Positions 6,680 to 52,584 of a stretch of 64,000 nucleotides of DNA are shown here, piece by piece. Below the pieces are notes generated by a model that was given only the letters and a program-made list of their open reading frames with translations, made no database searches and had not been told where the DNA came from. The stretch is from Bispira polyomma. Lineage: Eukaryota. The position numbers were made by a program, and so were the translations under genes. The stretch spans positions 11,656,001 to 11,720,000 of the forward strand of contig OZ287751.1 in assembly GCA_965649765.1 (NCBI GenBank). The letters run 5' to 3'. Every line of letters begins with the position of its first letter. Position 1 is the stretch's first letter.

Positions 6680-8549
6680 CTTTTTTTTTCACTGGCAAAC
6701 ATTTTTAGTACTTTTTTCACTGATAAAATTACCAGAATCCGTGACGGTTTTACATTAGCTGCCCCAAATGCCCCTTTACCAACAGCTCCACCAACCGTCT
6801 TCAACTGTTTCTCCACAGTAACTGTTGATGAAGTCAGGAAAATTATACTGGCATCACCCGTAAAATCTTGCTTGCTAGATCCATGGCCCACATTCCTTGT
6901 CAAAGAATGTATTGACATTTTATTGCCCTCAATCACAAAACTTATCAACCTCTCGTTGGTAAATGACGTCTTTCCAAATGATTTTAAAAAGGCCATTGTC
7001 ACTCCTTTAATAAAAAAATCTTCTCTTCCAAAGGCTGACCTGAAAAATTGCCGTCCTGTCTCAGGCCTTTGCTATATCTCCAAGTTGGTAGAACACGCGG
7101 TTGCCTTACAGATCAAACAACATGTTGACGTCAGCAATCTGTTCAATAAGTATCAGTCAGCATACAAAAGTGGCCATTCTACTGAGACTGCACTACTCTG
7201 CATCAAAAATGATGTTCATACATCTTTATCCAAAGGTATGCCTACTGCCGTAGTACTGCTGGATCTGTCAGCAGCCTTTGACACTATTGATCACAAAGTT
7301 CTTCTTGAGTGCCTACCGTTTTGGTTCGGTATCAGCGGTATGGCACTTAAGTGGTTCACGGCATATTTGTCTGATAGATTCCAATCGGTCAAAATTGGCA
7401 ATATCTGATCTGACCCAACATGGTTAAAATTTGGTGTTCCCCAAGGTTCCATCCTGGGTCCTATTTTGTTTTCCATGTACACCACTCCACTCAGCAAGAT
7501 TATTGCTGCATACAAAAACATAAACTTTCACTTCTATGCCGATGATACCCAACTGTATATCCACCTTACACCTGACTCTGCCCAGGCAGCTTTCCCTTCC
7601 TTACAGAACTGCCTTATTGATGTACAACACTGGATGGCAGCAAATAAACTCAAGCTGAACCCTGAGAAGACTGAGTTTATTTTGTTCGGCTCCAGGGCGC
7701 AACGGGAAAAATTGTCCAGCTGTTTTCTACTTGACATTCTTGGCAGCAGGTTTTTTCCAGGTGACAAAGTACGCAACCTGGGTGTGGTGTTCGACTCTGA
7801 ATTCTCCTTCTCTAACCATGTCGCATCGGTGTGTAGATCATGTTTTGTTGGCCTCCGTGATTTCAGGCAGATACGACCCTATCTTTCCAAATCCACTGCA
7901 ATTACTGTTGCCAATGCTTTGGTCGGCAGCAGGCTTAACTCTCTGTTACATTCCTTATCTTGTAGTGATCTTAGACGCCTTCAGAATATCCAACACTCAT
8001 TGGCACGTATTGTGACCAAAACTTTTAAATTTTCCCACATTACTCCTGTACTCAAGTCACTGCACTGGCTCCCAATAAAATATTGTGTTGCTTTCAAAAC
8101 AGCACCAATTATATATAAATTTCTAAATTCTGGATTACCCACTTATTTAAGCCCCCATCTATCCAAATATACATGCTCAGTCAGGACAAGGCGCAGTAAC
8201 CCTGATAAATTATACTTTAACATTCCCACTTTCGACCCTCGCATCCACAAATCCAAAGTTCAGTTCAATCACTGCCTAACTCATGATGGCCCCCCTCATT
8301 TGGAATAGCCTACCTGATCATGTTCCCCTGGCTCTAAGTTTCTCCTCTTTCAGGAGTAAGCTGAAGGCCTACCTTTTTGAACAGCCTTTTCCACCTTAGC
8401 CGTCACAACCATTTACGGTAGTCTTACTGGTTACGACTTCCATCAGCCCACTATTTTTGATTTTCGATTAATGTTTTGGGTTTGTTGCACCTTAGAATTT
8501 GTTGTACAAAGATTAAGGGCTATAAAAGTACGACTAGATTAGATTAGAT
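6680..8549 (+). mobile_element. 5'-truncated L2/Crack-type (CR1-group) LINE, RT pseudogene
   Basis: ORFs 6872-7408 and 7466-8308 with LDPWPT, QSAYKSGHSTETALL, LLDLSAAFDTIDH, GVPQGSILGP, YADDTQLY, LHWLP; premature stop 7406-7408; (tagat)n tail. Confidence 0.92.
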
Positions 8550-16452: not shown

Positions 16453-17599
16453 CTAACTGGGTGTCTGCTTGTCCGAGGATCTTTTGGCGACATTCGCCTT
16501 AACACATTTGAATTCTGGATGTGTGTTCTCCCTATTTGCTGAGCGAAAACAATGGTTACATATGTGGCGATATTGTCCGTGGTCGGACTCGTGGTTGCAA
16601 GTGCCGTTATTGTAAAATTTACAAACATTCTTGGGTTTTTGTGATGCCTGTGATGCCTGTGGGGCCGTTAATCAGAGCCAGCTGCGATGTATTCATGCGA
16701 TTTAGAGCCCACTGTGTAGAGTTCGACCAATCCAGTCTACCCTCTTCCACCTCCTGCATGTTCAATGCCCAACCTGCTCTAACACCTGGCCAGGGAAGAG
16801 AAGCCGAATCCCTCAGAGTATAAATCATTTGGTACATCATGTGCCGCATGGTAGTGGCATCTGAGACTTGTACAATGTTAAATAACTGCCCGGCAGCCAA
16901 CTGTGACAGTGAGAGATCATCAAAGCTAGGTCGTTTCCGAGCAGTGCCTCCAATCCAGCCCTCGTTTGACCACCGAGATTGTGGATCAGACGTAATAACG
17001 TCCGTGGTGTTAAACCGATCGGATTTGTGTCTGAGGGAGGTCTTACCTTGCGACAGGTCCGTCCTAAGCTGCACGTCATAAGCCGCCAGTCGTTGATTTA
17101 CTGCAGCGTTAACCTCAGGTAGGGTCTTCAAAACATCCGGTCGAGGGATAATGCCATCCCGCTGGTAGTCTTGGTGAAGAGCAGCCACTGGGGCCCTGTA
17201 CTGAATGGCCTGAGCCGTGTGGACGTCTGTATGCGTGTGAGGGACGTAGTGATTACCCGGCAGAATCAGGGGAAGTTTGTCTGCAATGGGTGGCCGTAGT
17301 TCTATCATGGTATTGTTGGCGCCCTGCTGTGTAGGAGAGGTTAATGGGGCCGAGTTACACGCACCTGTCAATCCCACCTTATCGAGCCGTCTATTAATTT
17401 CAGAATTTGCTGATTCCAGCCTTTTTAAAATAGTCATTACGTCTGAAATACCATTCTCACCCGTCGCTGTCTGTGCTTCTGTCTCCTTTGTGATCCTAAG
17501 TTTCCTAACTACTGGATCTGTGCCTTTGGTTGTCCCGCGTTTAGAGGTCGTTTTCTTCTTGGATAACGGAATACTACCTGGTGTTTTCGTCTTCCCCAT
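16453..17599 (-). pseudogene. E1 gag (frameshift near 16635)
   Basis: Homologous to E3 gag (RWSNEGW, LRDSASLPW, TQWALNR); C-terminal CKFYNNGTCNHESDHGQYRHICNHC..HPEFKC zinc-finger region in the shifted frame. Confidence 0.88.
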
Positions 17600-27292: not shown

Positions 27293-30200
27293 TTAGTCAT
27301 GTATGTCATTATAGATAAATCCTGAGTGTAATCTTGTGTAGTCTTTGTGGAAAAATGCATTTGCCTACATTTATTCCATAAGGTTTCTAGAATCTTGTGT
27401 AGAATCTGAATGAATCTTGGGGTGTTATAGGGTAACTTGTAGATATGGCAGAAAGTTGTCAAGATAAGTATTAATAAATCCTGGCTACTCCTACCATAGC
27501 CTGGCAATGTTGTGAGGTCTAAGTATAATCAGAAATGGTCCTAGCATTCTGGTACAAAAACTTGTGGTGTTATTGTTATGACTCTGTTGGATCTTTGAAA
27601 GTCATGGTCATTTTGTTCACCGTGGTTCTGTCTATAGGACGTGGATGTGGGGCCTATGCAATGGAAACTCCTGGATCTACCCCATTTACCTGGATCTGCT
27701 ACCAAATATAAAGGATTAATGACACTTGGTACATCCCCCATCCCCACTAAGTTATTGTAAATTAGTTGGGCAGTTTTTGTGTGGAACTCTGCCTAGAACA
27801 AACAAACCTAACCAGACAAAAACATCACCCTTCTTGTCAAAATTAAACAATACTTTTAGAACTTCATTGATAGTAAACAACTGGAGCAGAAAAAACACAG
27901 TAAAAATATTAAGGCTTTATGACGTCAGTCTTAATGCTCTGTCACAAAATTTTGAAACGGTTCTACTCCAAACTGTAGTCATGAAAAAAAAAAAATTACA
28001 GCTACCGACGCTAGGCTCTACTGGTGCTTTGATAGAGTTGAAGAACTGAAATGTCCATCAAGTACAGCTTGACACTATTTAAATCTTCTCTATGAAATCA
28101 CTGTTTGTAGAATCTAACACAAATATGTAATTATTTGTTGAGCTTTTGTAACCAGAGTTTCTGCCTGACTGAAAACATCAAGAAAAAATATATTTTAGTA
28201 TAATGGCACTATCTGTTTAAAAAAGTAAAATATTACCAACAATATATGTCAGTTGTGATTATATTATCTGTCATTTGGCCTAGTATGTAATACACTTGCT
28301 TTTGGACTGGAACAGGCAGAGATGTAATGGTTTGGATGATGACTAGCAGTCCCCATCCCTAGTGGCAGACTTAATAATGTTGACGATTTTGACAAAATCT
28401 TCTTCATCAAGACTCTGTCTTCACTTAGAGGAATGACAGTTACTGGTGCTAGTTGGCTGCACTTGGGCAGCCAAGAGAATGGTTAATCAGGGCCTCTGAA
28501 TAACAGACAAAAGAGAATGTATACTTGAATATAAATACGAATTTTTCAGATAGCATAATTAATTCTTAGATGAAGTGAGATATTGAAAATTAATTCATTC
28601 AATTAAAACATTTTGAGAGAAAAATATTGAAAATAGTTATTTTACTATGTCATGCTGGAATTATTTTGTCACTAAGCGCCAACCACAACTTGAGGCATTA
28701 CAATTAGTTCAGAAGTCATCTGAGCCATTCTGCATGCTATTACCCACTAGGCCTCTGTGGAAGCCAGACAGAAACCTTGACAAAAAAAACAAAAAACACT
28801 GAACTGCTACATTAATTTAAATCACCTTTATTTTACTGTTATCTCATATCTTTAGGTCATCTTAAGTTAAGGTAACATTCACATTTGGTCAGGTCTTGAT
28901 ACACTTAAGTAATCCAAAATTAAGTGAAGATAGGTTTAACTGTATTAAGGTGGCCTTGTCTCTAGTTTTGTATATACAAATAGTGCATACCTCCTGAACA
29001 AACTACAGCTTTTTCCACTTTCAAAATCAAATATACAAGGTCATGTCTCACAGGAGGAACATTGGATTTTCCAACAAGTGTTTGAAAAAAATGAAATCAT
29101 AGGGAGATTTGTGTCAACATGTTTGAATATATACCGCTTCATTCTACATTCAAGAACAATTTCTTCCGGTGATTAGACACAGTTGTTAACACCAGCCGCC
29201 TTTCCGGAAACTCCTACAACACTTTAAAGGCCTCTTTGCCAACCCACACTTATAAGTGACAGTTTAAAAGCACTTGATTGGCCAACATGGAAATCTCCTT
29301 TAGGAAGTTCTTTCATCAAAATCATTTTAAAAAAGGCAAAAAAAAACAAAAAGGCAAAAAACTCTTACATAAAAATACCTATATGAAGATAAAAGCTTGA
29401 TTTTTTATTATGTTTCTCCTTAAAATTTGCAAATACTCATCTATTACTAGATGGAAGTGAGACAGACATTATTAACTCACTTCTCCACCTCAACATTTAT
29501 GTGCTGGTTATAAATGAACTCTGATCATGAACCTTTTTTTCCTATCGCACTATTCTTTTGCACATTGACTGGGATGTGTACTACAAAGAATGTCTGGTCT
29601 TCGATTGTAGTGCTATAGAGGTATAACATTATAATTATCAGCAGATAATTTTCGTGTGATTATACTATGTCATCCACATTATAATAATATATGGCCCTAT
29701 ATTTATTGTAGCACAACAAATTTCTGATCTAAACAGACAAAACATTGAAAATCGTCATCAATCTGCTTACAGAAAATTCCACTCTACAGAAAGTGCCCTT
29801 TTTTTCTATCAGCAATGATATCAATCTTGCACTAGACCGCAATGAAACAGTGGCCCTCACCCTTCTAGATCTTTCAGCAGCATTCGACACTATTGAGTAT
29901 GGCCTGCTCTGTGACACTCTCAAGCAGTGGTTTAGGATAAATGGCAGTGTTCTTAAATGGATCAGATCTTACCTTACTATTTGAGCACAAGAATTAAGTT
30001 AGATGATAACTTATCCTCTTTCATAAACTTACTATACAGAGTACCCCAGGGATCCGTCCTTGGCCCTCTACTTTTCACCCTTTATACACATCCTCTCAGC
30101 ATTGTCATCAATAATCATAACATAAAACACCAGATGTACGCAGATGACATTCAAGTCTATCTCTCTCTCAACCCTCAAAATGCAAATAAAAATATTGACC

Positions 30201-33200
30201 TACTTGCAGACTGTCTGTCCGATGTCCAGGCGGGAATGAACTACTCTAGACTAAAACTAAATCTGAACAAAACAGAATTCATTCTCATTAGAAGCAAGAA
30301 AAATAATGAATTCTTAAAATCTTTGTTTCCAATCTCCCTTCCGCAAAAAGACATACTACCTTCAGTAAATGCCAAAAACCTGGGTGTCACTTTCAATTTA
30401 GCTTTTTCATTTGACACTCATGTTGCTAACATCTGTTGCTCCTGCTAGTACCATATACGCAACATCAAAAGAATACGAAAACATCTGTCAATGGACACAG
30501 CGAGAACTGTGGCTAACGTCCTCATTTGCAGCCGCTTTGACTACTGTAACTTTCTTCTGCTCGGAGTAAACAAGTCACAGATCAAAAAGCTCCAGTCCAT
30601 CCAAAACTACCTGTGCAAGGTTATTTTTGCTTGGGTTGTCACACAGATGTCACTCCTTACCTCAAAAAAATTCACTAACTGCCCATTCACTGTCGTATTT
30701 TTTTCAAGATTCAAGTTACCGCTTTCAAGGCTGTAGTCACTCAACAGCCCTCTTACTTTGCTTCCCTTCTCTTCTTCAGTAACCGTAAGAGAGGCAACAG
30801 ACTCTCTATTTCTTCGGTCAGACCCATCACGAAGGAGGGATCCAAAGCATTCTCCATTGCAGCTCCTTTGTTGTGGAACAAGCTCCCAGTTTACCTTAGA
30901 TCAGTTGATACACTTAAAAAAAAAAGCTTAAAACCTATCTTTTTAACCGTGCCTACCCACCTTAGCTTACCTTGTACATGCTCCCACCTCTTTCCTTACG
31001 ACTTTGCTTTGCCCATGGACTTTACAATTCGAATAATGAATTTTGCTGTGGCTCTTTGGAAGATGCCTCGAATCAATAAAGCGCATTAAAAATTCATAAT
31101 AACAATAATAAAAATAATAGGAGTAATTATTTCTGTGTGTTATATGGATAAAAGTAACATATTAGGTTGACCCTTTCGCGAAGCATCTAAATTATTCAAA
31201 CACTTATAACCACATTAAAACGAATGTAATAAATACATATTGTGGTCAATTTTGTTGATATATCACTTGTTATATGGGGCCCACATGTTCCTATGTATAG
31301 TCATACATTGGCTTCCTATTAATTATCAAATTTTGATTTAAAATCAATGTCATAACTGTATATCTGTTGTCTCTCCACATCCCTCCTACTGTGCTACTCA
31401 TCTCTTAACTTTCGACTTTTCTGTGTCCTCTGCTAAGCTTTCTCAATCAGTGCCCTTGTGTTATGCAGTAGTCTCCAAGTTGAGCTTAGCTAGCTACCTC
31501 CCCTAACTATCTCCCTGTAGCCTCTCCTAACTCCTTCCTTACAATCTGCATATTGTATCTCAATTGGTTCATTTATTCTGTTGTTGCACTTTAGATGATG
31601 CCTCTCATCAAGAAGGCATGTTTAAAATGCAAAAATACAATGCACTCGCCTACCACCTGGGTTGGCATTATTGTGTTTTTGTTAAAAAGTTGCTACTTTG
31701 CACCAACCACCCTTTTTGGATTTCTTCTCCCATTCACTACGAGACAAATCGTCATGACAGTGATGTTAAACCAAACCATAATCTTGTTGATTGATATGCA
31801 ACACTTCCTGTTTGAGGAGGGATATTTGGCAATTACTATATAATCACCTTTGTACATAATTTTATGAGCATGTATCACTTTTATGGAGTGATATTTTATT
31901 AGCAATAGATGACTGATCAATATATTTGTAATTCTTTCCATCACAAAACAATGACTGAAAAATGCAAGGATTAATGCATAACCAGCAAGGTTGTCACACA
32001 AGCTCATAAAATACTTAATGCAGAAAGACCTTGGTGACACAAAAGGAAAATAGGGCAGTGAAGAAATACACAAAACTCCACTTACGTTTTGATGAGGCTG
32101 AACAACAAAAACTGCTTTTACCTCATTAAGTGTAAGGTTGAATGTGTCACTGAATGCTTGAAAAAGTCAGAGCTAATATTTCCCTTTAACAAGTTTTTCT
32201 TACTTAATTGGTTTGAATGCTTATATGGAAATGCTTATAATTATGTAGACTCGGAAGAAAGAACTTTTTCCCTAAACACCACTGTGTAAAGTCCATAAGT
32301 TTAATAATGCTGTACAAGCTAATTGAAAAACCACATTTTAGTGACATTCCAGTAATTTTGAAAAGTTGACTGTAGTAACAGCATATTATTTTACATTTGA
32401 GAGCTGTTTTCAAATATGATCCTAACATAATATCCTTGCAATGCAATTATTTGCCTTAATAAAAAGTCATGGATGGAAATACTTTATTGCTGACCTTAAT
32501 AAATAATGTTTTGTTAACATAAGACAGATATTGCTCCCTGGAGTGACATTGTGCTTATTTTCATTTGGTTAAAATGTGAAATAAATGTCTAATATGCAAA
32601 ATAAGTCACTAATACACATTTGATTTACTATGGAAGTTTCATCTAAAATGAACACATTGGACAGAAAGATCAGTGGAATCTTTAAAAAATCACACTTTTT
32701 ACAGTATAGTTTCAATAAAAATAGAAAGCGGTTTTAACTTCCTGCCAAATTAGTCGAAATTCTGCAACTTAAACTGATGGTTTGAGTCAAATACTATAGC
32801 TATAAATTTCCTTATTAAGGGTATAGCCTAGACAACTTAGCAGTAATTTTAATGGAGCTTTTAGTGAGGCAATCAAATTTGTTCTCGGATTTTAGACATA
32901 TTTAGTGTACACTAAGATGAGACAGAAGATATTTTGAGATATTTTGTGAGTGTAAGTTTTAGGGCATTTAATCAATACAGACCCTGATGTCAACTCAACC
33001 CTGGGGACCAACAAACAATAGCCCTTTGGTGAAGTGGAGAGACACAACCTTCTTAAAAGGACAAGGGGAGTAGTTTAGGAAAGCAACAATTTGGTATCAT
33101 TCATATTACAGATATGGAAGTTGTGATTTCGTTCTCTAACAAAATATATAATTCCAGTTATGTAGATTTCTACAGGACAACAGACACTTGCACAAATAAG

Positions 33201-35694: not shown

Positions 35695-36692
35695 ATGGCT
35701 CCTCGTAAAACATATGACTGCCAGAAATGTGGACAAAATCATGTTAAACCAATAGATGATAGATGTAAATTAGCAAACACTTTATTGTCGGAGAACTCTG
35801 TTCAAGCGAATGCAAGTCAAACTCCTGTTGGTGATACTAACTCTCAAATCCTACGTGAATTGCGAGCACTGGGGGGTCGTATGACCCTAATTGAGCAACA
35901 GGTTAGGCATTCAGAACATAGAGCGCAGTCCTTGTCCAGTTCACCACTGATGACCACACCCATGCGCACAAGCCAGGAACAGAGACCTACCTCGACACTA
36001 GTGGATCCGGAAGATGTCCTCGTTCCTTCTTTGCAAACCCTGCGAGACTCCCAGCAGTTGCAGTCAGCAGTCGACACCCGCCTCAAAGAACTGGCTGTTA
36101 TTAACGAGGCAGGTATGTTTAAGTCACAGAGGGGGGGGGGGGGGGGACAGATACTGTATGGGTTAAAAATAAAGTACCATGGCCCCAAACTTTGATTCTA
36201 GGGGGGCAAAATAAGGGCAGGTTGTCCTATGACTCTCTTTCCATGGCTCAATGGTTGGCTGGCTTCACCAGCATTATTAGAGATGAAAGTGATGTAACTA
36301 TTAAAAACCAAATTCTTGAATACCTCTCTGATTTGATGGAAGATGCTCATGACTTCTCTTGGAATTCAGCTAAGGGCAGTCATGCAGTGTTACTTTGCAA
36401 AATGGAAGAGGGAAAAATTACATGGGGGGATTCCCACAAACTAGACAGAATAAGAAGAGCTCATGCTCAAAAAGTAGTAAATTCAGGTCAAAATTTAACT
36501 CAAAACAATTCCAAGAGAAGTCATGACAAAGGGGCTCCATGCAAATACTATCAGAAAGGTACTTGCTCCCAAAAAGGGGACCACGAAACCAGGGGCCAAT
36601 CCTACCTCCATGTCTGTAGTGTATGTTTTGCATTGGGTCGCTCCCATGCCCATCCTTCTAAAGACTGTCGAAAAAATACAAAAAACGAATGA
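35695..36692 (+). pseudogene. E2 gag (frameshift in G16 run 36131-36146)
   Basis: N-terminal CQKCGQNH..C knuckle; MEDAHDFSW; C-terminal CKYYQKGTC..H..CSVC..H..C. Confidence 0.85.
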
Positions 36693-39222
36693 GGCACTGC
36701 AGCTGTGCAGTGCCCAAAATGTTTCTCAGTAATCAAACCTGTAAAAAGGACAGACAATTTGTGTGTCGTAATAATTTTAATGACAGAGTTGTACATAGTA
36801 GTGTATGTGATGTGTATGGTAGTAGTCACTGGAGAACTGATTGGGCTCATTTCAAACAAATGTCATACGCAGATGTATTAAAAAGGGGCAAGGCAAAAAC
36901 CAGTTTCAGGAGTAATTTGAGTAGAAAAACTGACAGTTTCTCCAGTGATTCCTCCAGATGAATAAAAAAGTCACAACATGTATACTAGTATCTTTAATAT
37001 GTGCCATAGTACTAAAATGTGTACACAAGTACCTGATAGTAGTAAATGTGTTGTAAGAATTGTAGGAAATAATGTCAGATGCAGCACTAGCAGGGTCAAT
37101 GGAAAAGTGCCAAAGGAAAAGTCACACCTTCCCAAATCCCCTGTTAAATCAATTGTCCAAGAAAAAGGTGCCAAACTTGGGGAAACAAGTAGGTCAAAAA
37201 CCTCTGTCCACTATTCACACCTCTTGAAAGGTATGAATTCTCCAACCCCCATTCAAAACAAATTTGCAATTTTGGCCACAATAGGTGATGGGGACAATAC
37301 AAATACTGAGGTCAAACAAATCAACACCTCTGTCCCTAAAGGTGGTTGCACACCAAAGGTAAACAGCCATGGGGTTAAGCTGAACACACATACAGCAGGT
37401 AAAGGTGCGCTTACACAAGGCAGTATAGACAGTGACAAATATGATTTGGAACTGCAAATCAAACCACGCCATAAGGACTTAATAAGCAAGGCTTATAACG
37501 AAACGCGCTTCCAACTGTGGAATTCACAGATGAATGACAAATATGGTTTTATTCCCTTAGGTGAATTACAAATTCCAATTTCTGATAACCGGCATAGCTC
37601 CCAGAAGTCGTTTCAAAAAACAAAAACGACCAAATTTTATGGGTGCACAAATAGAGATAAAGTCAGAACTAAATTCAGACGCTTGGGAAAAATACCTGCA
37701 AGGCTACTGGGATACCCAGTTGCCATTTTTAGTGAGATACGGCTTTCCACTTGACTTTGACAGCAGCAGTAAACTGTTGCATACCGAAGTTAATCATAAG
37801 TCGGCTACAGATTGTCCGGACGATATTAAGGCATACCTTGATGAAGAAATAAAATATGGTGCAGTGCTGGGACCATTTAAAGAAGTTCCCATATGTGACC
37901 TTCATATCTCACCATTCATGTCAAGGGAAAAACCTGGGGCACCTCATAGACAAGTACTAATAGACCTCAGTTATCCACATGGGGAATCTGTCAATACTGC
38001 TGTAGCTAAAGACAAATACTTAGGAACACCATTCTGTCTAACCCTTCCAACCATAGACACTATCACTAGCAAAGTAATCAAACTAGGTCGTGGGACGCAG
38101 TTATATAAAATCGATGTCAGCCGGGCATTTAGGCACGTAAAGATCGACCCAGCCGACTATAATTTGCTAGGCTTAAAGCTGGAAAAATACTATGTAGATT
38201 CGTGTCTCCCCTTTGGTTTTCGGCACGGAAGTGCAAATTTTCAAAGATTAAGTGATGGCATCAGATATATAATGCAATGCAATGGCTATGACGTCACAAA
38301 TTATGTTGATGACGTCATAGGATATGGAAATGACGTCGAAAGTCAACGCTCATTTGACTTGTTGCATAAATTATTACTAGAATTAGGTTTTGCGATTAGT
38401 AACAAAAGACTAGTGTACCCCAGTACAAAAGTCACACGCTTAGGCGTCCTTGTTAATACCCAAGACTTCACAGTCTCCATACCACCAGAAAAGTTGGAAG
38501 AAATAGGTAGCATGATAAGTCTATGGAAACATAAGCAAAAATGTACAAAACGAGAACTCCAATCATTGCTGGGCAAACTACTGTACATATCAAAATGTGT
38601 ACGAGTATCCCGGGTTTTCCTTAATCGCATGTTGGACACTCTGAGACTGGCAGCCAATAGCAAAAATATAAAATTAACAACAGAATTCCATCAGGATGTA
38701 AACTGGTTTTCAAAATTTTTGCCTACATTTAATGGCAAAGCCTTTTTTTATCTTAAACCAACAACTGACTGTATACAACTCGACGCTTGCTTGCAAGGTT
38801 TTGGAGGCCGATGCAATGAACAGGTATACACCCATGACATACCTCTGTGGTATCTTAACCTCACAATTGTACACTGTGAGATGCTGAATATTTTGGTAGC
38901 CATCAGGGTATGGAAATCTCTCTGGGCAGGTAAAAGACTAATCATTCAATGTGACAATGCAGCAGTAGTCTCTATTCTCAGTTCAGGAAAAACTAAAGAT
39001 TTAACATTAGCAGCCATAGCTAGAAACATTTTCATGGAAACAGCATTGGCTGACATAAGTCTCAGAACTATTCATATATTAGGTAGAGATAACAATGTAG
39101 CAGACTTGCTGTCTCGATGGCAGCTCACAACAAATACCAATGATAAGCTCAAACAGTTTATATCCAACCCTATATGGATTCCAGTTCAAAGTAGCATGTT
39201 AGAAATTGACTGGTCTATATAA
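36689..39222 (+). pseudogene. E2 pol (N-extension, RT, RNase H; two frameshifts)
   Basis: KIDVSRAFRH, LPFGFRHGS, YVDD, LDACLQGFGG, CDNAAVV, ADLLSR in 37561-39222. Confidence 0.9.
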
Positions 39223-42612: not shown

Positions 42613-44430
42613 ATGCCTCCACGTTATTACAAAAAAGGGCAAGGGGAATGGGAAGAAGAGGGGAGACACCGAGGAACTTCTTCAGTCTCAATAACCCATG
42701 TTCTAGGAGGAAACTGAGTTAGGTGGGGTTGTGTTAAAAATTCCTGAAGCCAATATCACAGCTGAGTGTGAGGGTACTGGCACCATTGTACCACAGGGTG
42801 CACCAGGCACAGGCACAGTCACAACTGAGGGAGGAACTGAGTCACTGAAACTAGCCTGGGACATCAAGGAGTGTGGGCCTAACAGACGCCATTTTGTTGA
42901 GGGGCTAAGCAAGAAGGTAAAATTGACCGACCAATTGTCAGATGAAGGAGCAGTTGGTGGAGTTTTTTGCAGCGTAGCCCCTCTTCTATGACCAGTCGCT
43001 CCGTAACTTTAGGAACAGGGCCAAGAAGTCCCGGTTGATGGCCAGACAGGGAGACAGCATGGGGCTCACTGATAAGTTGCACTTAATATGTAATTAAAAT
43101 TGTGTCTGCATTTATTTCAGTTTTACATTGGGTTTAGATTGTAATGTGATGTTTGTAATTTTTAAGAAACTTGTGAAATGTTGTGTAATTATCTAATTCA
43201 GTTCAGCTTTACAATATTAAGCGACTGTCAGTAAAGTTTTTTATTATACCGGTTATTGGTAGTAATAAGTTATATTAATATCTAATTAGAATTGTGAATG
43301 CATATATTTCAGGTTTACATTCGAGTGAAATTTTAATGTATGTAATTGTAAGGAACTTGTCAAATATTGTGTAATTATCTAATTCACGTCCGTTTTACAT
43401 TATTTAATTACTGTCAGTAAAGTTTTTTCATATGATTTTATTATTCCGATTGTTGCTAGTAACAAGTTAATAGTTATGAGTTATATTAATATCTAATTAC
43501 AGCTGCAACTGCATGTGTTTTAGGTAGGCTTGGGTTGACGAGTTATCTCATTTTACCTGTTATTGTGTTTTAAAACATTTTGTTTACAGGCCAGGGCTAT
43601 TGCTGTTGCTGGGTTTATTATGTACTTACCCAAATACTTACCCGAATACTTACCATTATACTTAACAGCTGTCCTTGTACTTTTCCATTAGGTGACCGAA
43701 TCAGCACATGGTTTAAGTCCATGTGGACAATCTATGGCAAGCTGAAAAAAGACAAATTCCGGCCAGGCAACCAAGGTGCTAACTGCACACCAGACATGGA
43801 CACTGGGATCCTTCAAAATCCTGGAGGCACATCTGGTGGCTCGTTCGGAGAATCGGCAGCTGGGGATAGGGCCTACCCCGTCAAACCTTGATGACCTGTA
43901 AGACGATGAGAAGATCTCCAATTTCTCCTCCCAAGCTCCTTTTGAGACCAGAGAGGAGTCAAGAGCCCCAACCACACCACCCTTTCCAGCCGGGTCAGTC
44001 CGGGAGCCAAGCCAGGGCTGCTTAGGGTTCGCAGCCAAAGCCAGGGTAGGGTAGTGCCCGGAGGATTGACGACGCCATTATACAGCTGGCCGAGCATTTC
44101 ACCACCTCCCAATGCACCGATCCGCTGCAGTCTATGGTGAGTGTGGCCAACAACCCCAGAATGTTTGTTTGCCACTGGTTTGGGCTAGAGTTGGAATCTC
44201 TCACGTGGCCATCACCCCAACAAGCAGTCTTCTCCAGCCCTTGGTTCGACCTTCCTCTGTTCTGCCTGGCCAGGCATCGGGTTCAAGTTCATTCACACCA
44301 CCAAACATCTGGTCACCACCAACACCACAACAACAATAGCTGAACCTATCATACAGCAGTTATGGGACTATGAACACCTCAGGCATATTAACCATGCTGG
44401 GCAGCATACAGGGGCAACGGACACCTCAAA
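42613..44430 (+). pseudogene. Harbinger Myb/SANT (MADF)-like DNA-binding protein, 2 exons (intron ~43072-43691)
   Basis: EQLVEFFAA*PLFYDQSLRNFRNRAKKSRLM then DRISTWFKSMWTIYGKLKK..SGQA; donor mutated (ataag), acceptor ttccattag. Confidence 0.7.
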
Positions 44431-44849
44431 GTGAGCCCACTCAAAAGACTGAGGTGACCTTGGTGTATAACTTAAACATTTCAAACTTGAACTTAACCTT
44501 TGGTTTTTGCATAGCACGACCCAATAGGGGTCTGCTACTTCAGTTCAACCAAAGGAAAATGTATTACTACTTTAAGCCCTAGGGGCAAATTCGACAACTG
44601 TAGCATGATTCATCCAACCGTGAACTGGCCAGCCAATTAGGGGTCTTCCCTCCCAAATTCTGCATTCCTGTCCTAATATCTTCCATTTTGGAAAAGGATT
44701 CAGCAGTACACACACGTACATTTTATACAGCCAAGTTTATGAAGGCTCTGCTGAATGCAATTGTTTTTAGTATTTTAGTTTTTTATTTTATTGTTTGTTT
44801 TTAATATACTCTACTTTTTATGTGTTTGTGATATATATATTGTGGTAAA

Positions 44850-46103
44850 ATGGGGAGGACGTCTGAAAGGAAATTAAGACACACTAAGAAGACCCCAGCT
44901 ACTGAAGGCAGTAAGGCAACAAAGAAAGGTACAGCAAAGAAAAGCAAATTGGGTAAGAATACTCGTATTGATGACAGTATCATAACTAACCCCAGTAGCC
45001 TCTTTGATCAAGCTGAGGCCGACCACGTGTCTCCATCTACCCGATCTCGGCTTACGAACCCCACCGGATCATCATACCGGGACAATGAAATGCTAACCAT
45101 ACTAAGGCGGCTTGAGGAATCTAACGCGCTACTCACCCATAGGTTGGATCGAGTAGAAGCTAGAGACTCGACTGCTCAGTCAGCATCTCCTTGCCTAAAT
45201 CCCACACGTTCTGCTCACCAGGTCGCGTTGGGTAATGACATCACGGCTCAGCCACACCTCTCAGCTCCAGGTTCCATGACGAATCCTAGTCACTCGTATC
45301 CACAGGCACCGCTGTCGATCAGTACCACGGCTCAGCCACACACGTCAACAGCCAGTTCACTTAACCGGGTCGACTACACCACTGATGCAATCGTTCCCAA
45401 AGCAGACATCCTGAAGACGTTGCCAGACATACAGGCAAGGGTCAACGAGAGGCTAGCCGAGTACAACCTCCAGGCCCAGGCCGTATTTACCCAAGGTAAG
45501 GCTGCTCTCAGACAGAAGTCGGGGAGATTTAATACTACAGACATACCGAACAGCAACCCGAAGACTAGGTGGGCAAACGAGGGGTGGACGGGTACTTCTT
45601 CGCGTAAACGACCACCTTATGATGACTTGTCGCTTCCTCAGTGGGCATCTGGCCAGTTGGCAAATGCTCTCCAGGTCACGGACCCTCTGGTCTCGAGAGA
45701 AATTATACAGCAGGTCGTTCTATCCCTCAGGGACGCCGCGTCACTACCATGGGAGGTCGTCCGAACGGCCTGGGCGTTAAACATGACCGAGATTGAAGAA
45801 GGTAGACTGTCCTGGGGGGACACAACGCAGTGGGCCCTCAACAGGTTCAGTGCGTCACAGCTAGCTATGGTGAATTCTAAAACCACCAATGCTTCATCTA
45901 CTCACGTCGGATCAACAGCCAAGGTTATTTGCAAACTGTATAACTCCGGAAAGTGTTCGCATAAAGCAGATCACAGCCAGTATAAGCATGTGTGTTGGCA
46001 CTGTGCTACCGTGCTTCACAAAGATGTATACCACCCAGAATTTAAGTGTTATAAGTCCAACTCAGCTAAACAGGCAGAATCAGGCTCTTCTTCTACCCAC
46101 TAG
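44850..46103 (+). CDS. E3 Gag (417 aa) with C-terminal Cys/His zinc-finger region
   Basis: Intact ORF; CKLYNSGKCSHKADH..CWHC..HPEFKC. Confidence 0.9.
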   Translation: MGRTSERKLRHTKKTPATEGSKATKKGTAKKSKLGKNTRIDDSIITNPSSLFDQAEADHVSPSTRSRLTNPTGSSYRDNEMLTILRRLEESNALLTHRLDRVEARDSTAQSASPCLNPTRSAHQVALGNDITAQPHLSAPGSMTNPSHSYPQAPLSISTTAQPHTSTASSLNRVDYTTDAIVPKADILKTLPDIQARVNERLAEYNLQAQAVFTQGKAALRQKSGRFNTTDIPNSNPKTRWANEGWTGTSSRKRPPYDDLSLPQWASGQLANALQVTDPLVSREIIQQVVLSLRDAASLPWEVVRTAWALNMTEIEEGRLSWGDTTQWALNRFSASQLAMVNSKTTNASSTHVGSTAKVICKLYNSGKCSHKADHSQYKHVCWHCATVLHKDVYHPEFKCYKSNSAKQAESGSSSTH

Positions 46104-49100
46104 GACATTGACCAACTACCAGGACTAGGGCCATCTTGTCATAACAGTGAAAGTAAGAATAAGTTAGAAGTATATGTAAAACAGAATTATGAAGACCAAG
46201 ACATAACTAAAGCAGATAAGCATATGCTTTCATTGTTAAATAAGATGGAAAGTAATAATTCGTATATTTCTTCAAACAAACCTAAAAATGTTAATGTGAA
46301 TGTATTGTCACATGAAAGTGAAAATGTAAAAAATGTACACACTGTTAAACCGGAAATGTGTAAACCTAGCTTGTCAATTAGTACTGACAAAAAGAGCATT
46401 GATGATAGCCATATTGCAGTTAAAAATTATAATGTCATTAGATTGCCTAACAAGTTTGGAAAGATAAAAAATTCATGCACTGCTAAAACGGCAATGTGTG
46501 ATCCTAGCTTAACAGTTAGTATCGACAAGAAGGTTAATAATAGTGAACCTATTGGGGTCAAGAAATGGAATGTTCAGCAATATATCAGGGCCAGTGTACT
46601 GGACTCGAGTACCAGTACTAGAATGTACAGAGATGACAGTTATGGTCAATTCACCAAATTTGGGGGCTTTTCTAAAAATAAAGGTGATATTAAGATAAAT
46701 GGTCTAGATAATTCACACAGCGAAGTCCCTGTATTTTGGGGAAACAGAAATATTGGTGAACATTTAGAAAGAGAGAATAAAAGAAATTTTACAGTTAATG
46801 CTGATTTATGTAATGCCAGCAGTGTTAATGCCAAGTATGGTACCCCAAATGAGACAAAAGTAAAAGTTACCATCTCTACTACTAATTGGTTGTTTTGCAT
46901 GCCTCACATTACACAAGGAATGCCTGTGGTTTTTGTGCAGTCTGAGCTGCCACATGTTTCTGGTTTTTACACCTCATGGGATGAGGATTTTGGGACAAAT
47001 TTCTACAGATGTAAGAACCCACCAACTGGGGTAATGTCAGTGACCAGCATAGTCACAACTCAAATAGCTTTGGCTAATTTTAGGGATGATTTTCAAAACA
47101 GCAACAAGGTTGTAACAGTTACTGATGATGACAAATGTAAAGCTAAGGATGCTTGGCATGATTTTCAAAAAGAAATGTATTGCAAAAACAATTTCAAAAA
47201 AGGTTATACAGAATATGTAACAAATATCATTGACGAAATGTTGTTAGACATAAATGTAAATACAACATGTGTTGTCAGTAATGACAGACCAATGGAGGTT
47301 CAAACCTGCCATAAAGGTAAAGTAGCGTCGTGCGATCTCTTCTTCCAAACTTTTGGACATTTCTCACAAACTACCACAAGTGCCACCATAGTGGATAAGG
47401 ATATTAATTTCCCCAACAAAACTAAGGGTTTCTTGGCAATCTCAGAAACCAAGTTTAGTTTTATAGGACCTGACAGGGCCCCCATACACATTACTTCAAT
47501 TAAGGAAATGTCTGAAATAGCACAAACCATTAGGGATACGGGATGTCCCAATTATAAGGGAGCAAGGATCCCCCTGGTATCAGGTCTTAACACCAAAGCA
47601 TGGGAGGAAGTCCTTTCAAATTACCCAGATGAACTTTTACTACAATATATCAAGTTTGGTTTTCCCCTCTCACTTACTTGTCCAAAGGATTTAAAGGTCA
47701 AGGATACCACCAATCACCACTCTGCACTTCAATTTAAGGACCACATAAGGCAATATTTAGAAAAAGAGAAACAGTGTGGGGCCATGTTAGGACCTAGTTT
47801 AGACATTAAGGATGAATTATTTCACTGTTCTCCACTGCTCACCAGACCTAAGGACAATTCCAAAAGGCGTGTAATTTTAAACTTGTCTCACCCCAGTGGG
47901 GAATCACTTAATGACAATGTCAATAGGAAACAATTCGATGGAGTGGACTTCACCTTAAAATTTCCCACAATAGACGATATAGTAGAACAGATTCGTAAAA
48001 CACACACTCCACGTATCTTTAAACTGGACGTCGCGCGCGCTTTTAGAAATTTGAGGGTGGACCCAGTCGATGCCATGAAATTAGGAATCAAATTTGACGA
48101 CCATAAGTACGTTGATCCGGCGGTTGCGTTCGGCTGGGTCCACGGCTCGACTGCTTTTCAGCGTTGCTCGGACGTTATAGCACACACCATGGAGAAGCAC
48201 AACCATAAGATCTTCTGTTATATCGACGATTATGCTTTTAACCAATTATATGAACTGGTTACCAAACTTGGTTTTCCGTTAAACCCAGAAAAAATTTCAA
48301 AACCAAGTTCAAAAGTCACCTGTCTTGGCATAGATATCGACATTCAGGCAGGCACTATAAGTATTACTCCCGAAAAAATACAGGAAACATATAACCTCTG
48401 TTTAGAAATAGTTAACAAAGTTTGGATATCTAGAACTAAATTTCAATCAATATTGGGAAAATTGCTTTACATCCATAAATGTGTAAAGCCTGCTCGAATG
48501 TTTATAAACAGACTTCTTATGGCGTTTCGGAATAACAGTCAAGCTAAACGATTTAAAATTTCGCATGACATGAAGGCTGACTTATTATGGTTCGTACAAT
48601 TTCTACCACGCTATAATGGTATTACGTTCATTGATCCGGTAATTGCTAAGCATAAGGACGAGGTTTTTATTGATGCATGCCTCACTGGCCTAGGGGCCAT
48701 CTACACCAATGAGGTTTTCGCTACCCCATTATACAACATCTATAATAGGGCTTTATCTATCGTGCATATCGAAATGCTTAACATTCTATTAGCTTTAAGG
48801 GTCTGGGGTGAGCAGTGGAGTCATAGACGTATAATCATGAATTGTGACAACATGTCCGTTGTCCTGGTAGTTAGGTCCAATAAGACAAAAGACGATTTTC
48901 TTGCTTTATGTTTAAGGAATATCTGGCTAATCTCGGCTGTACATGATATTACAATCGAGATTCAGCACATTAAAGGTAAAGACAATGTAATTGCTGACCT
49001 CCTTTCAAGACTTTTTTCTGAGCAACCCCCCCATAAGGGACAGTTGGAAATATTAAGGGATTCCTGTAAGTGGCACACCATTCCACTCCAGTACTTTAAC

Positions 49101-49118
49101 CTAGACTTAAATATATGA
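46104..49118 (+). CDS. E3 Pol (N-extension, RT, RNase H), in frame with gag
   Basis: Open from the gag TAG; KLDVARAFRN, AFGWVHGS, YIDD, IDACLTGLG, IEMLN, CDNMSVV, ADLLSR; no methyltransferase domain seen. Confidence 0.92.
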   Translation, partial: DIDQLPGLGPSCHNSESKNKLEVYVKQNYEDQDITKADKHMLSLLNKMESNNSYISSNKPKNVNVNVLSHESENVKNVHTVKPEMCKPSLSISTDKKSIDDSHIAVKNYNVIRLPNKFGKIKNSCTAKTAMCDPSLTVSIDKKVNNSEPIGVKKWNVQQYIRASVLDSSTSTRMYRDDSYGQFTKFGGFSKNKGDIKINGLDNSHSEVPVFWGNRNIGEHLERENKRNFTVNADLCNASSVNAKYGTPNETKVKVTISTTNWLFCMPHITQGMPVVFVQSELPHVSGFYTSWDEDFGTNFYRCKNPPTGVMSVTSIVTTQIALANFRDDFQNSNKVVTVTDDDKCKAKDAWHDFQKEMYCKNNFKKGYTEYVTNIIDEMLLDINVNTTCVVSNDRPMEVQTCHKGKVASCDLFFQTFGHFSQTTTSATIVDKDINFPNKTKGFLAISETKFSFIGPDRAPIHITSIKEMSEIAQTIRDTGCPNYKGARIPLVSGLNTKAWEEVLSNYPDELLLQYIKFGFPLSLTCPKDLKVKDTTNHHSALQFKDHIRQYLEKEKQCGAMLGPSLDIKDELFHCSPLLTRPKDNSKRRVILNLSHPSGESLNDNVNRKQFDGVDFTLKFPTIDDIVEQIRKTHTPRIFKLDVARAFRNLRVDPVDAMKLGIKFDDHKYVDPAVAFGWVHGSTAFQRCSDVIAHTMEKHNHKIFCYIDDYAFNQLYELVTKLGFPLNPEKISKPSSKVTCLGIDIDIQAGTISITPEKIQETYNLCLEIVNKVWISRTKFQSILGKLLYIHKCVKPARMFINRLLMAFRNNSQAKRFKISHDMKADLLWFVQFLPRYNGITFIDPVIAKHKDEVFIDACLTGLGAIYTNEVFATPLYNIYNRALSIVHIEMLNILLALRVWGEQWSHRRIIMNCDNMSVVLVVRSNKTKDDFLALCLRNIWLISAVHDITIEIQHIKGKDNVIADLLSRLFSEQPPHKGQLEILRDSCKWHTIPLQYFNLDLNI

Positions 49119-50104
49119 TTTCAGGATCAAACCACATCACACAAAGATTCACAGACTCAGCATGGCAGAGGATTGACTGTGCTTTGCGTCCAAAGACTAC
49201 ACAGACTTACAATACCCAGTTTAGAACCTTCATCTCATTTACTTGCTATGCTGGAATAGAAGAAATTACCACACACTCATTGATTGCATTTCTAGAATAC
49301 TTGGTACAAACAGGGGCGTCACCCAACATGGTTAATAACCATCTTGCAGCCATTAAACATATGGCCAAGAAGTTGTACTGGGATACAAAAATTTTTGAAA
49401 ACAATACAGTGTCTATGTTTACTAGAAGCTTGACACATACATCACCATTTAGACCTTCACCTAAAGGAATTTTCCACATTGAACACTTATTACTGATCTC
49501 CAAAGCTTGTGATATTTTAAGAGACCCACCTCTATATAGGGCCATTTTCATGCTAGCTTTCTTTGGATTCTTGAGAATATCCAATATAGTCCCTCATTCC
49601 AGATCCAAATTTGATCCAACTCGTCACTTTCTAAGGAAAGATATAATCTTTGGCCACCCAGGTGCACACTTGATCTTGAAGTGGGCAAAGAATTTACAAA
49701 TTAGATCACAGTTTCACATTATACAGATACCCTTACTGGACAATGTTTTACTATGTCCAGTCAAGGCCATACAGACATTATTGAAATCTAGACCTCTGTC
49801 ACCTGATGCCCCACTTTTCGTCAGTAGTACTTACCCACACTATCCAATTGTAGAAACACATGTGCGTTCTGCACTAGCTTCAATACTTACACATGTGGGA
49901 ATTCCCACCAAATCACATAGTTTCCACACATTTAGAAGATCAGGGGCAACATATGCCTTTAATAATAACGTGTCACTTCAAAACATCATGGCGCACGGCC
50001 TCTGGAGGTCATCTGCAGTCTGGTCATATTTGCATCAGAATTCTCAAGCAACTTCTGCTGTCCCTCTCACTTTCGCCTCCTCTATACCTAAACTTCCTTC
50101 CTAG
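49115..50104 (+). CDS. E3 tyrosine recombinase (329 aa; predicted spliced exon 49125-50104)
   Basis: FLRISN, KWAK, HTFRRSGAT, HGLW, WSYL all intact. Confidence 0.95.
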   Translation: MISGSNHITQRFTDSAWQRIDCALRPKTTQTYNTQFRTFISFTCYAGIEEITTHSLIAFLEYLVQTGASPNMVNNHLAAIKHMAKKLYWDTKIFENNTVSMFTRSLTHTSPFRPSPKGIFHIEHLLLISKACDILRDPPLYRAIFMLAFFGFLRISNIVPHSRSKFDPTRHFLRKDIIFGHPGAHLILKWAKNLQIRSQFHIIQIPLLDNVLLCPVKAIQTLLKSRPLSPDAPLFVSSTYPHYPIVETHVRSALASILTHVGIPTKSHSFHTFRRSGATYAFNNNVSLQNIMAHGLWRSSAVWSYLHQNSQATSAVPLTFASSIPKLPS

Positions 50105-50705
50105 TTTGGCTTGGGTGATTTTAAAATTACCTTGTATTTTAATAATTTATACCTATTTTACACCTACCTGTATATAGATTTACTAACATGTACAGAATTT
50201 AAATAAATTCCTCAAACCATAGTTTCACTGTCTTCTGCTATACTTACCAGACTATCTTTCCACTACAACTTACCTTCTTTCCATTATACCAAGTAGAACT
50301 GTGCATAGCACGACCCAATAGGGGTCTGCTACTTCAGTTCAACCAAAGGAAAATGTATTACTACTTTAAGCCCTAGGGGCAAATTCGACAACTGTAGCAT
50401 GATTCATCCAACCGTGAACTGGCCAGCCAATTAGGGGTCTTCCCTCCCAAATTCTGCATTCCTGTCCTAATATCTTCCATTTTGGAAAAGGATTCAGCAG
50501 TACACACACGTACATTTTCCACCCACCTCCCCTTAACCACACCATAAGTTAATGTTCATTGTTCATTTCTTAGCTATGGCCACTTTTGGTACTAAGCACA
50601 TACTATGTTAAGAAGATCTCTGGTTGCGGACCCAAAAGGGCCCTGCTGAAAATCTTTGTAAGATAGGAAATCACTTAAATTTGGTTGGATTTGTGGGAGT
50701 TTTTT

Positions 50706-50835
50706 GAACTCGGAACTGTGTGGTGTTAGGTCCTTCCTCATAACCTACCCTCTGGTGTGGGCTACCAGGGGGGAAATGCTCTGTGAGGTAGGATGTCTCA
50801 CTGCTAGGCGAGTCGGTGCTGTAAGTTCCGGGTTC
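50706..50835 (+). ncRNA. Candidate conserved three-way-junction cis-RNA in the E3 3' spacer (copy 51790-51919; homologues in E1 at 11822-11957 and 12034-12167, -)
   Basis: 12-bp closing stem GAACTCGGAACT/AGTTCCGGGTTC; same junction architecture with compensatory changes in E1. Confidence 0.6.
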
Positions 50836-52584
50836 CCAAAAACTCCAATTAAGGCTGCTAGCGCAGGCATAATACGGCTTATAAGTCCGGATTAAATAGG
50901 AAATTTACTAGTTAACGATTAAATATTGGTATGATTTAAAATGTTGAATGTAATGTCATTGGGCATAATTGTATTGAATAGTATTGGTATGATGTAATGT
51001 CATTTGGCATAATTGTATTGAATAGTGTTGGATCGACGTTGGCCTTAGGGGCTGATTGTTATAAAGGTGTACTGTTGTATGCTAGGCAAATGCTTAGTCC
51101 TCAGACGTTGGTTTTCCCAGCTTGCTGCTTAATGCTTGTGAGGTTTTATCCTCTGTATTATTTACTACCTTGCTTTTGCTTGTGTTGTCATGTAATGGGT
51201 GATTTTAAAATTACCTTGTATTTTAATAATTTATACCTATTTTACACCTACCTGTATATAGATTTACTAACATGTACAGAATTTAAATAAATTCCTCAAA
51301 CCATAGTTTCACTGTCTTCTGCTATACTTACCAGACTATCTTTCCACTACAACTTACCTTCTTTCCATTATACCAAGTAGAACTGTGCATAGCACGACCC
51401 AATAGGGGTCTGCTACTTCAGTTCAACCAAAGGAAAATGTATTACTACTTTAAGCCCTAGGGGCAAATTCGACAACTGTAGCATGATTCATCCAACCGTG
51501 AACTGGCCAGCCAATTAGGGGTCTTCCCTCCCAAATTCTGCATTCCTGTCCTAATATCTTCCATTTTGGAAAAGGATTCAGCAGTACACACACGTACATT
51601 TTCCACCCACCTCCCCTTAACCACACCATAAGTTAATGTTCATTGTTCATTTCTTAGCTATGGCCACTTTTGGTACTAAGCACATACTATGTTAAGAAGA
51701 TCTCTGGTTGCGGACCCAAAAGGGCCCTGCTGAAAATCTTTGTAAGATAGGAAATCACTTAAATTTGGTTGGATTTGTGGGAGTTTTTTGAACTCGGAAC
51801 TGTGTGGTGTTAGGTCCTTCCTCATAACCTACCCTCTGGTGTGGGCTACCAGGGGGGAAATGCTCTGTGAGGTAGGATGTCTCACTGCTAGGCGAGTCGG
51901 TGCTGTAAGTTCCGGGTTCCCAAAAACTCCAATTAAGGCTGCTAGCGCAGGCATAATACGGCTTATAAGTCCGGATTAAATAGGAAATTTACTAGTTAAC
52001 GATTAAATATTGGTATGATTTAAAATGTTGAATGTAATGTCATTGGGCATAATTGTATTGAATAGTATTGGTATGATGTAATGTCATTTGGCATAATTGT
52101 ATTGAATAGTGTTGGATCGACGTTGGCCTTAGGGGCTGATTGTTATAAAGGTGTACTGTTGTATGCTAGGCAAATGCTTAGTCCTCAGACGTTGGTTTTC
52201 CCAGCTTGCTGCTTAATGCTTGTGAGGTTTTATCCTCTGTATTATTTACTACCTTGCTTTTGCTTGTGTTGTCATGTAATGGGTGATTTTAAAATTACCT
52301 TGTATTTTAATAATTTATACCTATTTTACACCTACCTGTATATAGATTTACTAACATGTACAGAATTTAAATAAATTCCTCAAACCATAGTTTCACTGTC
52401 TTCTGCTATACTTACCAGACTATCTTTCCACTACAACTTACCTTCTTTCCATTATACCAAGTAGAACTGTAACTTGAACATCTCAAACTTGAACTTGGCC
52501 TTTGGTGTATAACTTGAAGATTTTGGGTTCAATCTTAACCTTTTGGAGATTTGTTGTTTGGCTATGCCACAGGTCTCACAGACT

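Follow-up and report, generated by a model that had tools for sequence, protein, structure and literature searches.

Candidate stop-codon readthrough and a predicted spliced recombinase in Ngaro-type retrotransposons of Bispira polyomma

Introduction

Ngaro-type tyrosine-recombinase (YR) retrotransposons are distinguished by split direct repeats and by the lack of a methyltransferase, as described in the available portions of three reports (PMC8547959, PMC4157794, PMC9210276). To account for how YR retrotransposons produce their reverse transcriptase (RT) and their recombinase, the accessible parts of the literature offer overlapping open reading frames (ORFs) and, for the YR, frameshifting as proposed by Poulter and Butler in 2015 and quoted in PMC13003380. 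Here we analyse three related YR retrotransposons, designated E1, E2 and E3, that reside within one 64-kb window of the Bispira polyomma genome (64,000 nucleotides (nt); GenBank assembly GCA_965649765.1, contig OZ287751.1, positions 11,656,001 to 11,720,000 of the forward strand). Our focus is E3, in which the gag and pol sequences share one reading frame that is interrupted by a single TAG codon.

Readthrough of this stop codon, in combination with a recombinase expressed from spliced RNA, is in our judgement the probable explanation for the E3 arrangement. Most ribosomes would stop at the TAG codon to yield a Gag protein of 417 amino acids (aa), and a minority would likely read through it to yield a Gag-Pol fusion of 1422 residues. 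The recombinase would be made from a separate spliced RNA in which the first 215 codons of gag (donor at 45496) are joined to the YR coding region (acceptor at 49124). The sequence comparisons demonstrate the layout, its conservation, a conserved linker that is coding, and conserved splice signals that are in phase. The occurrence and rates of readthrough and splicing are inferred, as is any role for a 23-base-pair (bp) stem that is predicted downstream of the stop codon.

Results

Gag and pol are separated by a single in-frame stop codon

The E3 gag-like ORF (44850..46103, + strand) begins with the ATG at 44850, encodes 417 aa with a C-terminal Cys/His finger, and terminates at the candidate readthrough codon (TAG, 46101..46103, +; context CAC TAG GAC). 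Thirteen homologs share 42-52% identity with this protein, which has no family match in Pfam. The frame that follows the stop codon is open for 1004 codons (46104..49118, +) and carries, in order, a variable linker, a conserved linker domain, RT and RNase H. Its first ATG, at 46224, is preceded by 40 open codons and marks the start of a 964-aa ORF. The same junction is present in E1, which represents a sister family whose RT is 58% identical to that of E3. The E1 gag stop (16453..16455, - strand; AGT TAG GAA) is followed by 95 open codons to the first ATG (16167) and by 326 open codons to position 15472.

These layouts, including the TAG-GA context common to both elements, bear out what an earlier note on this DNA had reported. 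The note had also stated that the downstream sequences of E1 and E3 do not align. This holds for the first ~240 codons but not beyond them, where residues 249-382 of E3 pol match residues 176-305 of E1 (phmmer E 5.6e-6, 63-sequence set). Were translation of pol to start at its own ATG, the chance of an open in-frame run back to the gag stop, as derived from base composition, would be ~0.009 for E3 and 1e-4 for E1.

E1 is a decayed copy, in which the YR is broken and the coding frame shifts near 16640 and again near 15490. The first frameshift places the zinc finger and TAG codon in a frame different from that of the main gag ORF, and at the second the post-TAG ORF stops (at 15472) short of RT. 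Among the 40 of 1368 rows listed for DNA contigs aligned to E3, there is no variant letter at 46101-46103, which is not counted as evidence here. A joint in a diverged contig that resumes at 46101 was set aside, as its shorter side, at 23 letters, is too short for use.

The in-frame arrangement is conserved among distant relatives

A pol-profile scan of metagenome contigs yielded 21 loci, 8 of which retain the end of gag. No match came from scanning viral and metagenome contigs with the gag profile, or viral and genome contigs with the pol profile. Together with E1, E2 and E3, this makes 11 elements whose gag end is present in DNA, and in 9 of these gag, one stop codon and pol occur in a single frame. 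The stop codon is TAG in E3 and E1, and TGA in L001, L002, L004, L007, L008, L013 and L014. In all seven TGA loci the pol frame continues from the gag stop to the end of pol. Gag was called by profile match in L001, L002, L004, L007 and L008, and by position and a Cys/His finger in L013, L014 and L019. The junction counts exclude two unrelated weak matches (L020 and L021, gypsy-like by their ORFs), the loci that have no gag end (L005, L006, L009-L012 and L015-L018), and L003, in which an in-frame TGA precedes a 1029-aa pol-like ORF but the gag carries no finger and the junction is unclear.

The RTs of the in-frame elements are 28-58% identical to that of E3 and are spread over the RT tree, including a hydrolase-bearing outgroup; E2 occupies a clade of its own. 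This tree (FastTree, 35 sequences, 538 columns) was rooted by choice on L013/L014 and comprises only unnamed relatives, among them the hydrolase-bearing L013, which is 28% identical to E3. Because several loci come from one metagenome and all share ancestry, they reveal conservation and are not independent draws.

None of the 10 gag stops is TAA, compared with 15 of 32 stops of pol and YR ORFs (Fisher p 0.007, with rows that are related and not independent). TAA is the tightest of the stop codons. The base that follows is C in 5 of 8 TGA cases and G in both TAG cases. Across the nine in-frame elements, the number of open codons ahead of the first ATG is 40, 95, 98, 4, 13, 22, 17, 221 and 222. 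The two largest values belong to L013 and L014, where the first ATG resides inside RT and beyond the conserved GFP motif (aa 62-63), and thus Pol cannot begin at its own ATG in these elements.

Stop-loss Gag proteins and a conserved linker domain

Our collection of gag-like proteins holds 164 members, and the finger end is present in 49 of them. The stop occurs within 18 residues of the finger in 34 of the 49, and the other 15 carry a longer tail. Six of these long-tail proteins have a close sister that fixes the position of the stop, where the residues are Y, W, K, Y, Q and Y, and the frame stays open for another 29-143 codons. Each of these four amino acids is encoded by a single-base neighbour of TAG, whereas W is not a neighbour of TAA and Y, K and Q are not neighbours of TGA, and the set fits a TAG stop. 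Eight of the remaining long-tail proteins have no close sister, and P0154 is ambiguous (S or Q). The extension of P0239 matches the N terminus of the pol protein P0023 (40%, 122 aa, E 2e-18). Longer fused Gag-Pol proteins were absent from the search results, which constitutes weak evidence.

Many of the at least 120 pol homologs listed have 250-400 open residues ahead of the FxFIGPD motif. In the E3 clade, this region between Gag and RT includes a linker domain of ~135 aa without a family name (pol aa ~250-385; 46850..47260, +). Among 63 linkers (E3, E1 and 61 homologs with more than 150 residues), Y368 is conserved in 62, I376 in 61, and K439 and G442 in all 63; D433 is conserved as well. The structural model of the domain contains five strands and two helices, with pLDDT mostly >90 over 46850..47260. 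No Pfam family matches it, and the only Atlas clusters recovered are unnamed, at 0.93. Foldseek found no similar fold at E<=0.001 (pdb and viral sets) and the best VIA match has a Z of 4.3, which does not imply that the fold is novel. The presence of a conserved protein domain indicates that the linker is translated and not spliced out.

Two other loci have pre-RT linkers of a different kind. In L008 (3010-4800) and L003 (732-2300), linkers of ~450-520 aa are rich in CxxC pairs that resemble zinc fingers, and by eye they are unrelated to that of E3. The L008 linker has no match in Pfam.

The earlier proposal that a Gag-Pol fusion is made by readthrough is thus supported by the relatives, through a single in-frame stop in 9 of 11 elements, the lack of TAA, the placement of the first ATG within RT in L013 and L014, the stop-loss proteins and the conserved linker. 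Its restriction to UAG does not stand, since the more distant families use TGA, and the process would be one of stop-codon readthrough in general.

Conserved splice signals predict a Gag-YR fusion

In E3, a predicted phase-1 splice donor (CAAG/GTAAGG, where the slash marks the splice junction; 45496..45501, +) is located at the conserved Gly216-Lys217 of gag. These two residues are invariant in 10 of 10 aligned Gag proteins, and GK is present in 66 of 88 proteins that carry the flanking motif. At the DNA level, 8 of 9 gag sequences have a phase-1 G/GTA donor ahead of the SGR motif. The predicted phase-1 acceptor (...ATTTCAG/G; 49109..49124, +) is situated at the start of YR homology, and a pyrimidine-rich phase-1 YAG occurs at the homologous column (within ~4 residues) in all 16 elements for which the YR start is present. 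Removal of the predicted E3 intron (45496-49124, 3629 nt) would fuse 215 codons of gag in frame with 325 codons of the YR. Candidate phase-1 donors and acceptors are also found in E1 (near 17046 and 13628) and in E2 (36113 and 39228).

The frame of the YR relative to pol is 0, +1 or -1, and in 8 of 16 elements the YR frame does not open before the pol stop, with the opening delayed by as much as ~760 nt. Frameshifting cannot bridge such a gap. The conserved in-phase sites instead make a spliced Gag-YR fusion the likely product, and the signals described here fit YR expression better than the frameshifting that had been proposed.

RNA structure around the stop codon

The weak downstream stem (gaca...tgtc) that the earlier note had seen in E3 is absent from the predicted fold, and the first 100 nt are less stable than shuffled sequences (z +2.7; 200 of 200 shuffles as good). 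A long-range stem is predicted at 46131..46248 (+), with arms at 46131-46155 and 46225-46248 that form 23 bp and enclose a 69-nt loop. In a 150-nt fold its pair probabilities are at least 0.9, and its z of -3.0 is the best among 102 E3 windows. Its stability is equalled by 3 of 500 dinucleotide shuffles and by 4 of 500 codon shuffles. The 3' arm ends at 46248, beyond the ~100 nt downstream of the TAG. Different stems that are nearer to the stop codon are predicted in L002, L008 and L019. A long-range partner for positions +4..+40 of E3 proved no better than controls (9 of 47 as stable). In a separate observation, duplexes that cover the gag stop are predicted in L002 (186-330) and L019 (107-320), with a partner 130-200 nt upstream, and this feature is not general.

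A number of observations weigh against readthrough combined with splicing. The E3 stem begins 27 nt past the stop codon, and the spacers known from the available portion of PMC3159437 measure 7-9 nt. Among the matches listed, a G at 46227 in contigs of the E3 family disrupts one pair near the loop. Nothing similar exists at this position in E1, L001, L013 or L014, and no 3' structure shared across the element set was found. The sequence contexts are diverse (TAG GAC, TAG GAA and TGA followed by CTT, CAT, TGT, AAT, GAT, CCG or CTC), and they include no exact type I-III readthrough motif of the sort given in the available part of PMC13517186. The only signal that we found in common is a non-TAA stop that is mostly followed by C (TGA) or G (TAG). 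Two of the 11 elements do not add to the in-frame count: L019, in which the shared frame breaks after 52 codons, is uninformative, and E2 is out of frame. In 10 of the 11 tail extensions tested from long-tail Gag proteins, no match to a pol N terminus was obtained. With regard to splicing, L014 has no donor at the corresponding place, and the acceptors were chosen by eye from candidate lists, with the alignment check made afterwards. Finally, Tca2 provides a precedent, reported in the available portion of PMC2194720, for a gag-stop-pol junction that alone may not direct readthrough and that can hold a promoter.

Alternative explanations for the gag-pol junction

The in-frame layout might be a relic, with Pol now made separately. 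Translation could start at the ATG at 46224, through reinitiation or on RNA from an internal promoter, or Pol could arise through a non-standard bypass akin to that of Tca2. We consider this unlikely, even though the E3 ATG has a fair context (CAT ATG C), lies 120 nt past the stop codon and is 5' of the conserved linker domain, and even though an ATG occurs within 4-22 codons in L002, L004, L007 and L008. The promoter activity of the Tca2 junction, and its failure to support readthrough in yeast, are in keeping with such a mechanism (available portion of PMC2194720). However, a separate start leaves unexplained the conservation of frame in nine elements, for which the chance product is 1e-28 and that for frame alone is 1e-4.3 (both composition-based, with relatedness ignored), as well as the lack of TAA and the position of the first ATG of L013 and L014 within RT. 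There are also 21 ATGs upstream of 46224, which argues against leaky scanning. A further splicing route would skip the stop codon by connecting the mid-gag donor with an acceptor immediately 5' of RT (TTTATAG/GAC, pol codon 453). Pyrimidine-rich phase-1 YAG/G sequences that are in phase with the donor do occur 65-66 codons ahead of the GFP motif in E3, E1 and E2, and weakly in L006, and this route could generate a minor isoform. Yet 9 of 13 elements have no such acceptor at the corresponding position, and its use would delete D433, K439 and G442 (conserved in 61-63 of 63 homologs) along with the entire linker domain; splicing is therefore rejected as the main source of Pol. Such splicing also predicts no constraint on the frame or on an open linker, and overall we view it as very improbable.

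Changes to the stop codon itself can be considered as well. Hepatitis delta virus is known to recode a stop codon via A-to-I editing. The same process could convert UAG or UGA to UGG, and it would also explain the avoidance of TAA, given that both TAG and TGA are one A-to-G step from TGG. In L002, L019 and E1, the stop resides inside a strong predicted duplex whose stability is matched by 0 of 40 shuffles for each of the first two and by 1 of 40 for E1. By comparison, E3 has no such duplex over its stop (29 of 40 shuffles equally stable), and the same is true of a further 6 of the 10. If edited RNA were reverse transcribed, TGG copies should also be enriched, but W is found in just 1 of the 6 stop-loss proteins, and editing seems highly improbable to us. 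Least credible of all is an origin of the TAG by random nonsense mutation within one continuous gag-pol ORF, or a coincidental in-frame layout. Both window copies are otherwise damaged, with frameshifts in E1 and an RT in E3 that is short by ~11 codons. Nevertheless, the 34 of 49 finger-motif Gag proteins noted above end close to the finger as E3 does, no protein among the best 150 gag profile matches exceeds 434 aa, and 9 families have the stop at the same position. Provided that the relatives are correctly assigned, this conservation refutes the chance explanation. Readthrough thus provides the best reading of the junction.

E2 carries a candidate frameshift signal

The end of E2 gag (36680..36714, +) departs from the in-frame layout. 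It reads A AAA AAC GAA TGA, with a 6-nt spacer that holds the TGA and a perfect 9-bp hairpin (z -3.1; 1 of 200 shuffles equally stable). The -1 frame is open for 89 codons and the 0 frame for 62. A slippery heptamer followed by a spacer and a hairpin is the classic appearance of a -1 frameshift signal, and the E2 gag end looks like a candidate of this type, which would make it an exception among these elements. Possible homology of the -1 frame to the N terminus of P0130 received no support from BLASTP. E2 is also decayed. Its gag includes a perfect 20-nt inverted repeat (36347-36366 and 36507-36526, 140 nt apart).

E3 is a Ngaro-type element with a variant repeat layout

E3 is a Ngaro-type YR retrotransposon. 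Its pol matches RVT_1 (E 2.5e-6; 27.8 bits, below the 29.6 cut-off) and RVT_3 (E 2e-5) in Pfam. The YR frame (334 codons; 49100..50104, +), which lies 3' of RT and RNase H on the same strand, matches Phage_integrase (E 5e-7) and Phage_int_SAM_1 (E 2e-6). Pol terminates ~35 aa past the RNase H-like match, and no methyltransferase family was found in E3 at E<=0.1 (Pfam). A strict DIRS-like identity was rejected on the basis of direct rather than inverted terminal repeats and the lack of a methyltransferase match. There is also no ORF after the YR for a hydrolase, an optional Ngaro feature, as repeat B1 begins 8 nt past the YR stop.

The split direct repeats have the order A1-[ORFs]-B1 A2 B2, which is likewise present in E1 (A1..B1A2..B2). 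A1 (44508..44724, +) is 217 nt long and is identical at 50302-50518 and 51386-51602. The 3' repeats (50112..52470, +) consist of B1 (50112-50301), A2 (50302-50518), a 677-nt spacer, a 1084-nt tandem duplication (B-A-spacer) and B2 (52280-52470), with B1 and B2 exact copies of ~190 nt. This layout is a variant, in that the spacer is ahead of B2 and a tandem duplication is present; the 1084-nt duplication of the B-A-spacer unit at the 3' end of E3 is exact. E3 is inserted within a host repeat, and contigs that span the site join 44490 to 52470.

Although the E3 frames are open, ~11 codons are missing in frame directly after YIDD (48234..48235, +). The stretch after YIDD comprises 9 residues in E3 versus at least 18 in all 100 homologs that show the pattern, and DNA contigs have 32 additional letters at 48234 (among the matches listed). 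This shortfall means that the E3 RT is probably defective, and that open ORFs do not denote an active copy. The main DNA contigs that match E3, from low-coverage runs, have depths of 600-830 among the matches listed, and so the family is probably multi-copy.

Other sequences in the window are also of note. Immediately 5' of E3, the region 42615-44420 (+) contains short GC-richer stretches with intron-like signals and is possibly a gene or another repeat. Further RT fragments (Pfam RVT_1) reside at 6680-8308 (+) and 29957-30448 (+), and in the first of these, which looks decayed, an in-frame stop splits the RT.

Discussion

Stop-codon readthrough is a known mechanism that, so far as we found, seems not to have been described in this group of retroelements. 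If it operates here, then by analogy with gammaretroviruses it would set a high Gag:Pol ratio and bring RT into the particle as part of a Gag fusion. An entire order of retroelements would then join the users of readthrough, and readthrough and frameshifting would be interchanged as in retroviruses, within one 64-kb window. Annotation would change as well, because Pol would begin at the gag ATG and the YR would be a second exon. Our literature search found no report of readthrough or of a gag-YR splice for DIRS or Ngaro elements, although earlier mention is possible in Poulter and Butler 2015, Goodwin and Poulter 2004 or Repbase notes. The search also covered available portions of PMC3783388, PMC2632668, PMC3266345, PMC6681497, PMC7192593, PMC5633606, PMC5890265 and bioRxiv 2021.04.08.439009.

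We somewhat favour a broader proposal in which Ngaro-type elements share an ancestral programme of three proteins from one promoter, namely Gag, a readthrough Gag-Pol and a spliced fusion of the Gag N terminus with the recombinase. The stop codon in this programme would be TGA in most lineages and TAG in the E1/E3 clade, with a switch to -1 frameshifting in the E2 lineage. E3 would add to this scheme a distant stem linked to readthrough and a novel domain situated between Gag and RT.

Among known systems, the gammaretrovirus Moloney murine leukemia virus (MoMLV) resembles E3 in its gag-UAG-G-pol arrangement in a single frame and in its Gag-Pol fusion, which is predicted for E3. MoMLV combines UAG GGA with a compact pseudoknot behind an 8-nt spacer, and it encodes a protease (available portions of PMC13517186 and PMC3159437). 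E3 is not a virus, has UAG GAC with no structure within 27 nt, and carries no protease by Pfam. Its predicted stem is similar to the extended 3' stem-loop of the alphavirus type, in which the arms are ~70-100 nt apart within 150 nt of the stop (available portion of PMC3159437). The alphavirus stem, however, begins 8-9 nt past UGA-C and is conserved with compensatory change according to the same source, whereas that of E3 begins at 27 nt, follows UAG-G and is present in one family. Tca2 of Candida albicans, a Ty1/copia element with a gag-UGA-pol arrangement, is like E3 a retrotransposon whose gag and pol are divided by a single in-frame stop codon. It differs as a long terminal repeat and integrase element, and in yeast no readthrough was obtained from its junction alone (available portion of PMC2194720).

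The closest known systems are Ngaro retrotransposons of the order DIRS, such as Ngaro1-4 of Cafeteria burkhardae (PMC8547959) and DIRS-53_XT/54_XT of Xenopus (PMC9210276), which according to the available portions of these reports share with E3 the order of gag, RT/RNase H and YR on one strand, split direct repeats and the lack of a methyltransferase. A GDSL/SGNH hydrolase ORF does follow the YR in distant relatives (L012 2198-2809, L013 4489-5094 and L017 2435-3136), with weaker matches to the OSK domain. E3 differs from the known Ngaro elements in that it lacks a hydrolase, has A2 separated from B2 by a spacer, and carries a pre-RT linker of ~450 aa. In addition, the ORFs of the Xenopus Ngaro elements all overlap, as stated in the available portion of PMC9210276, whereas the gag and pol sequences of E3 abut in frame.

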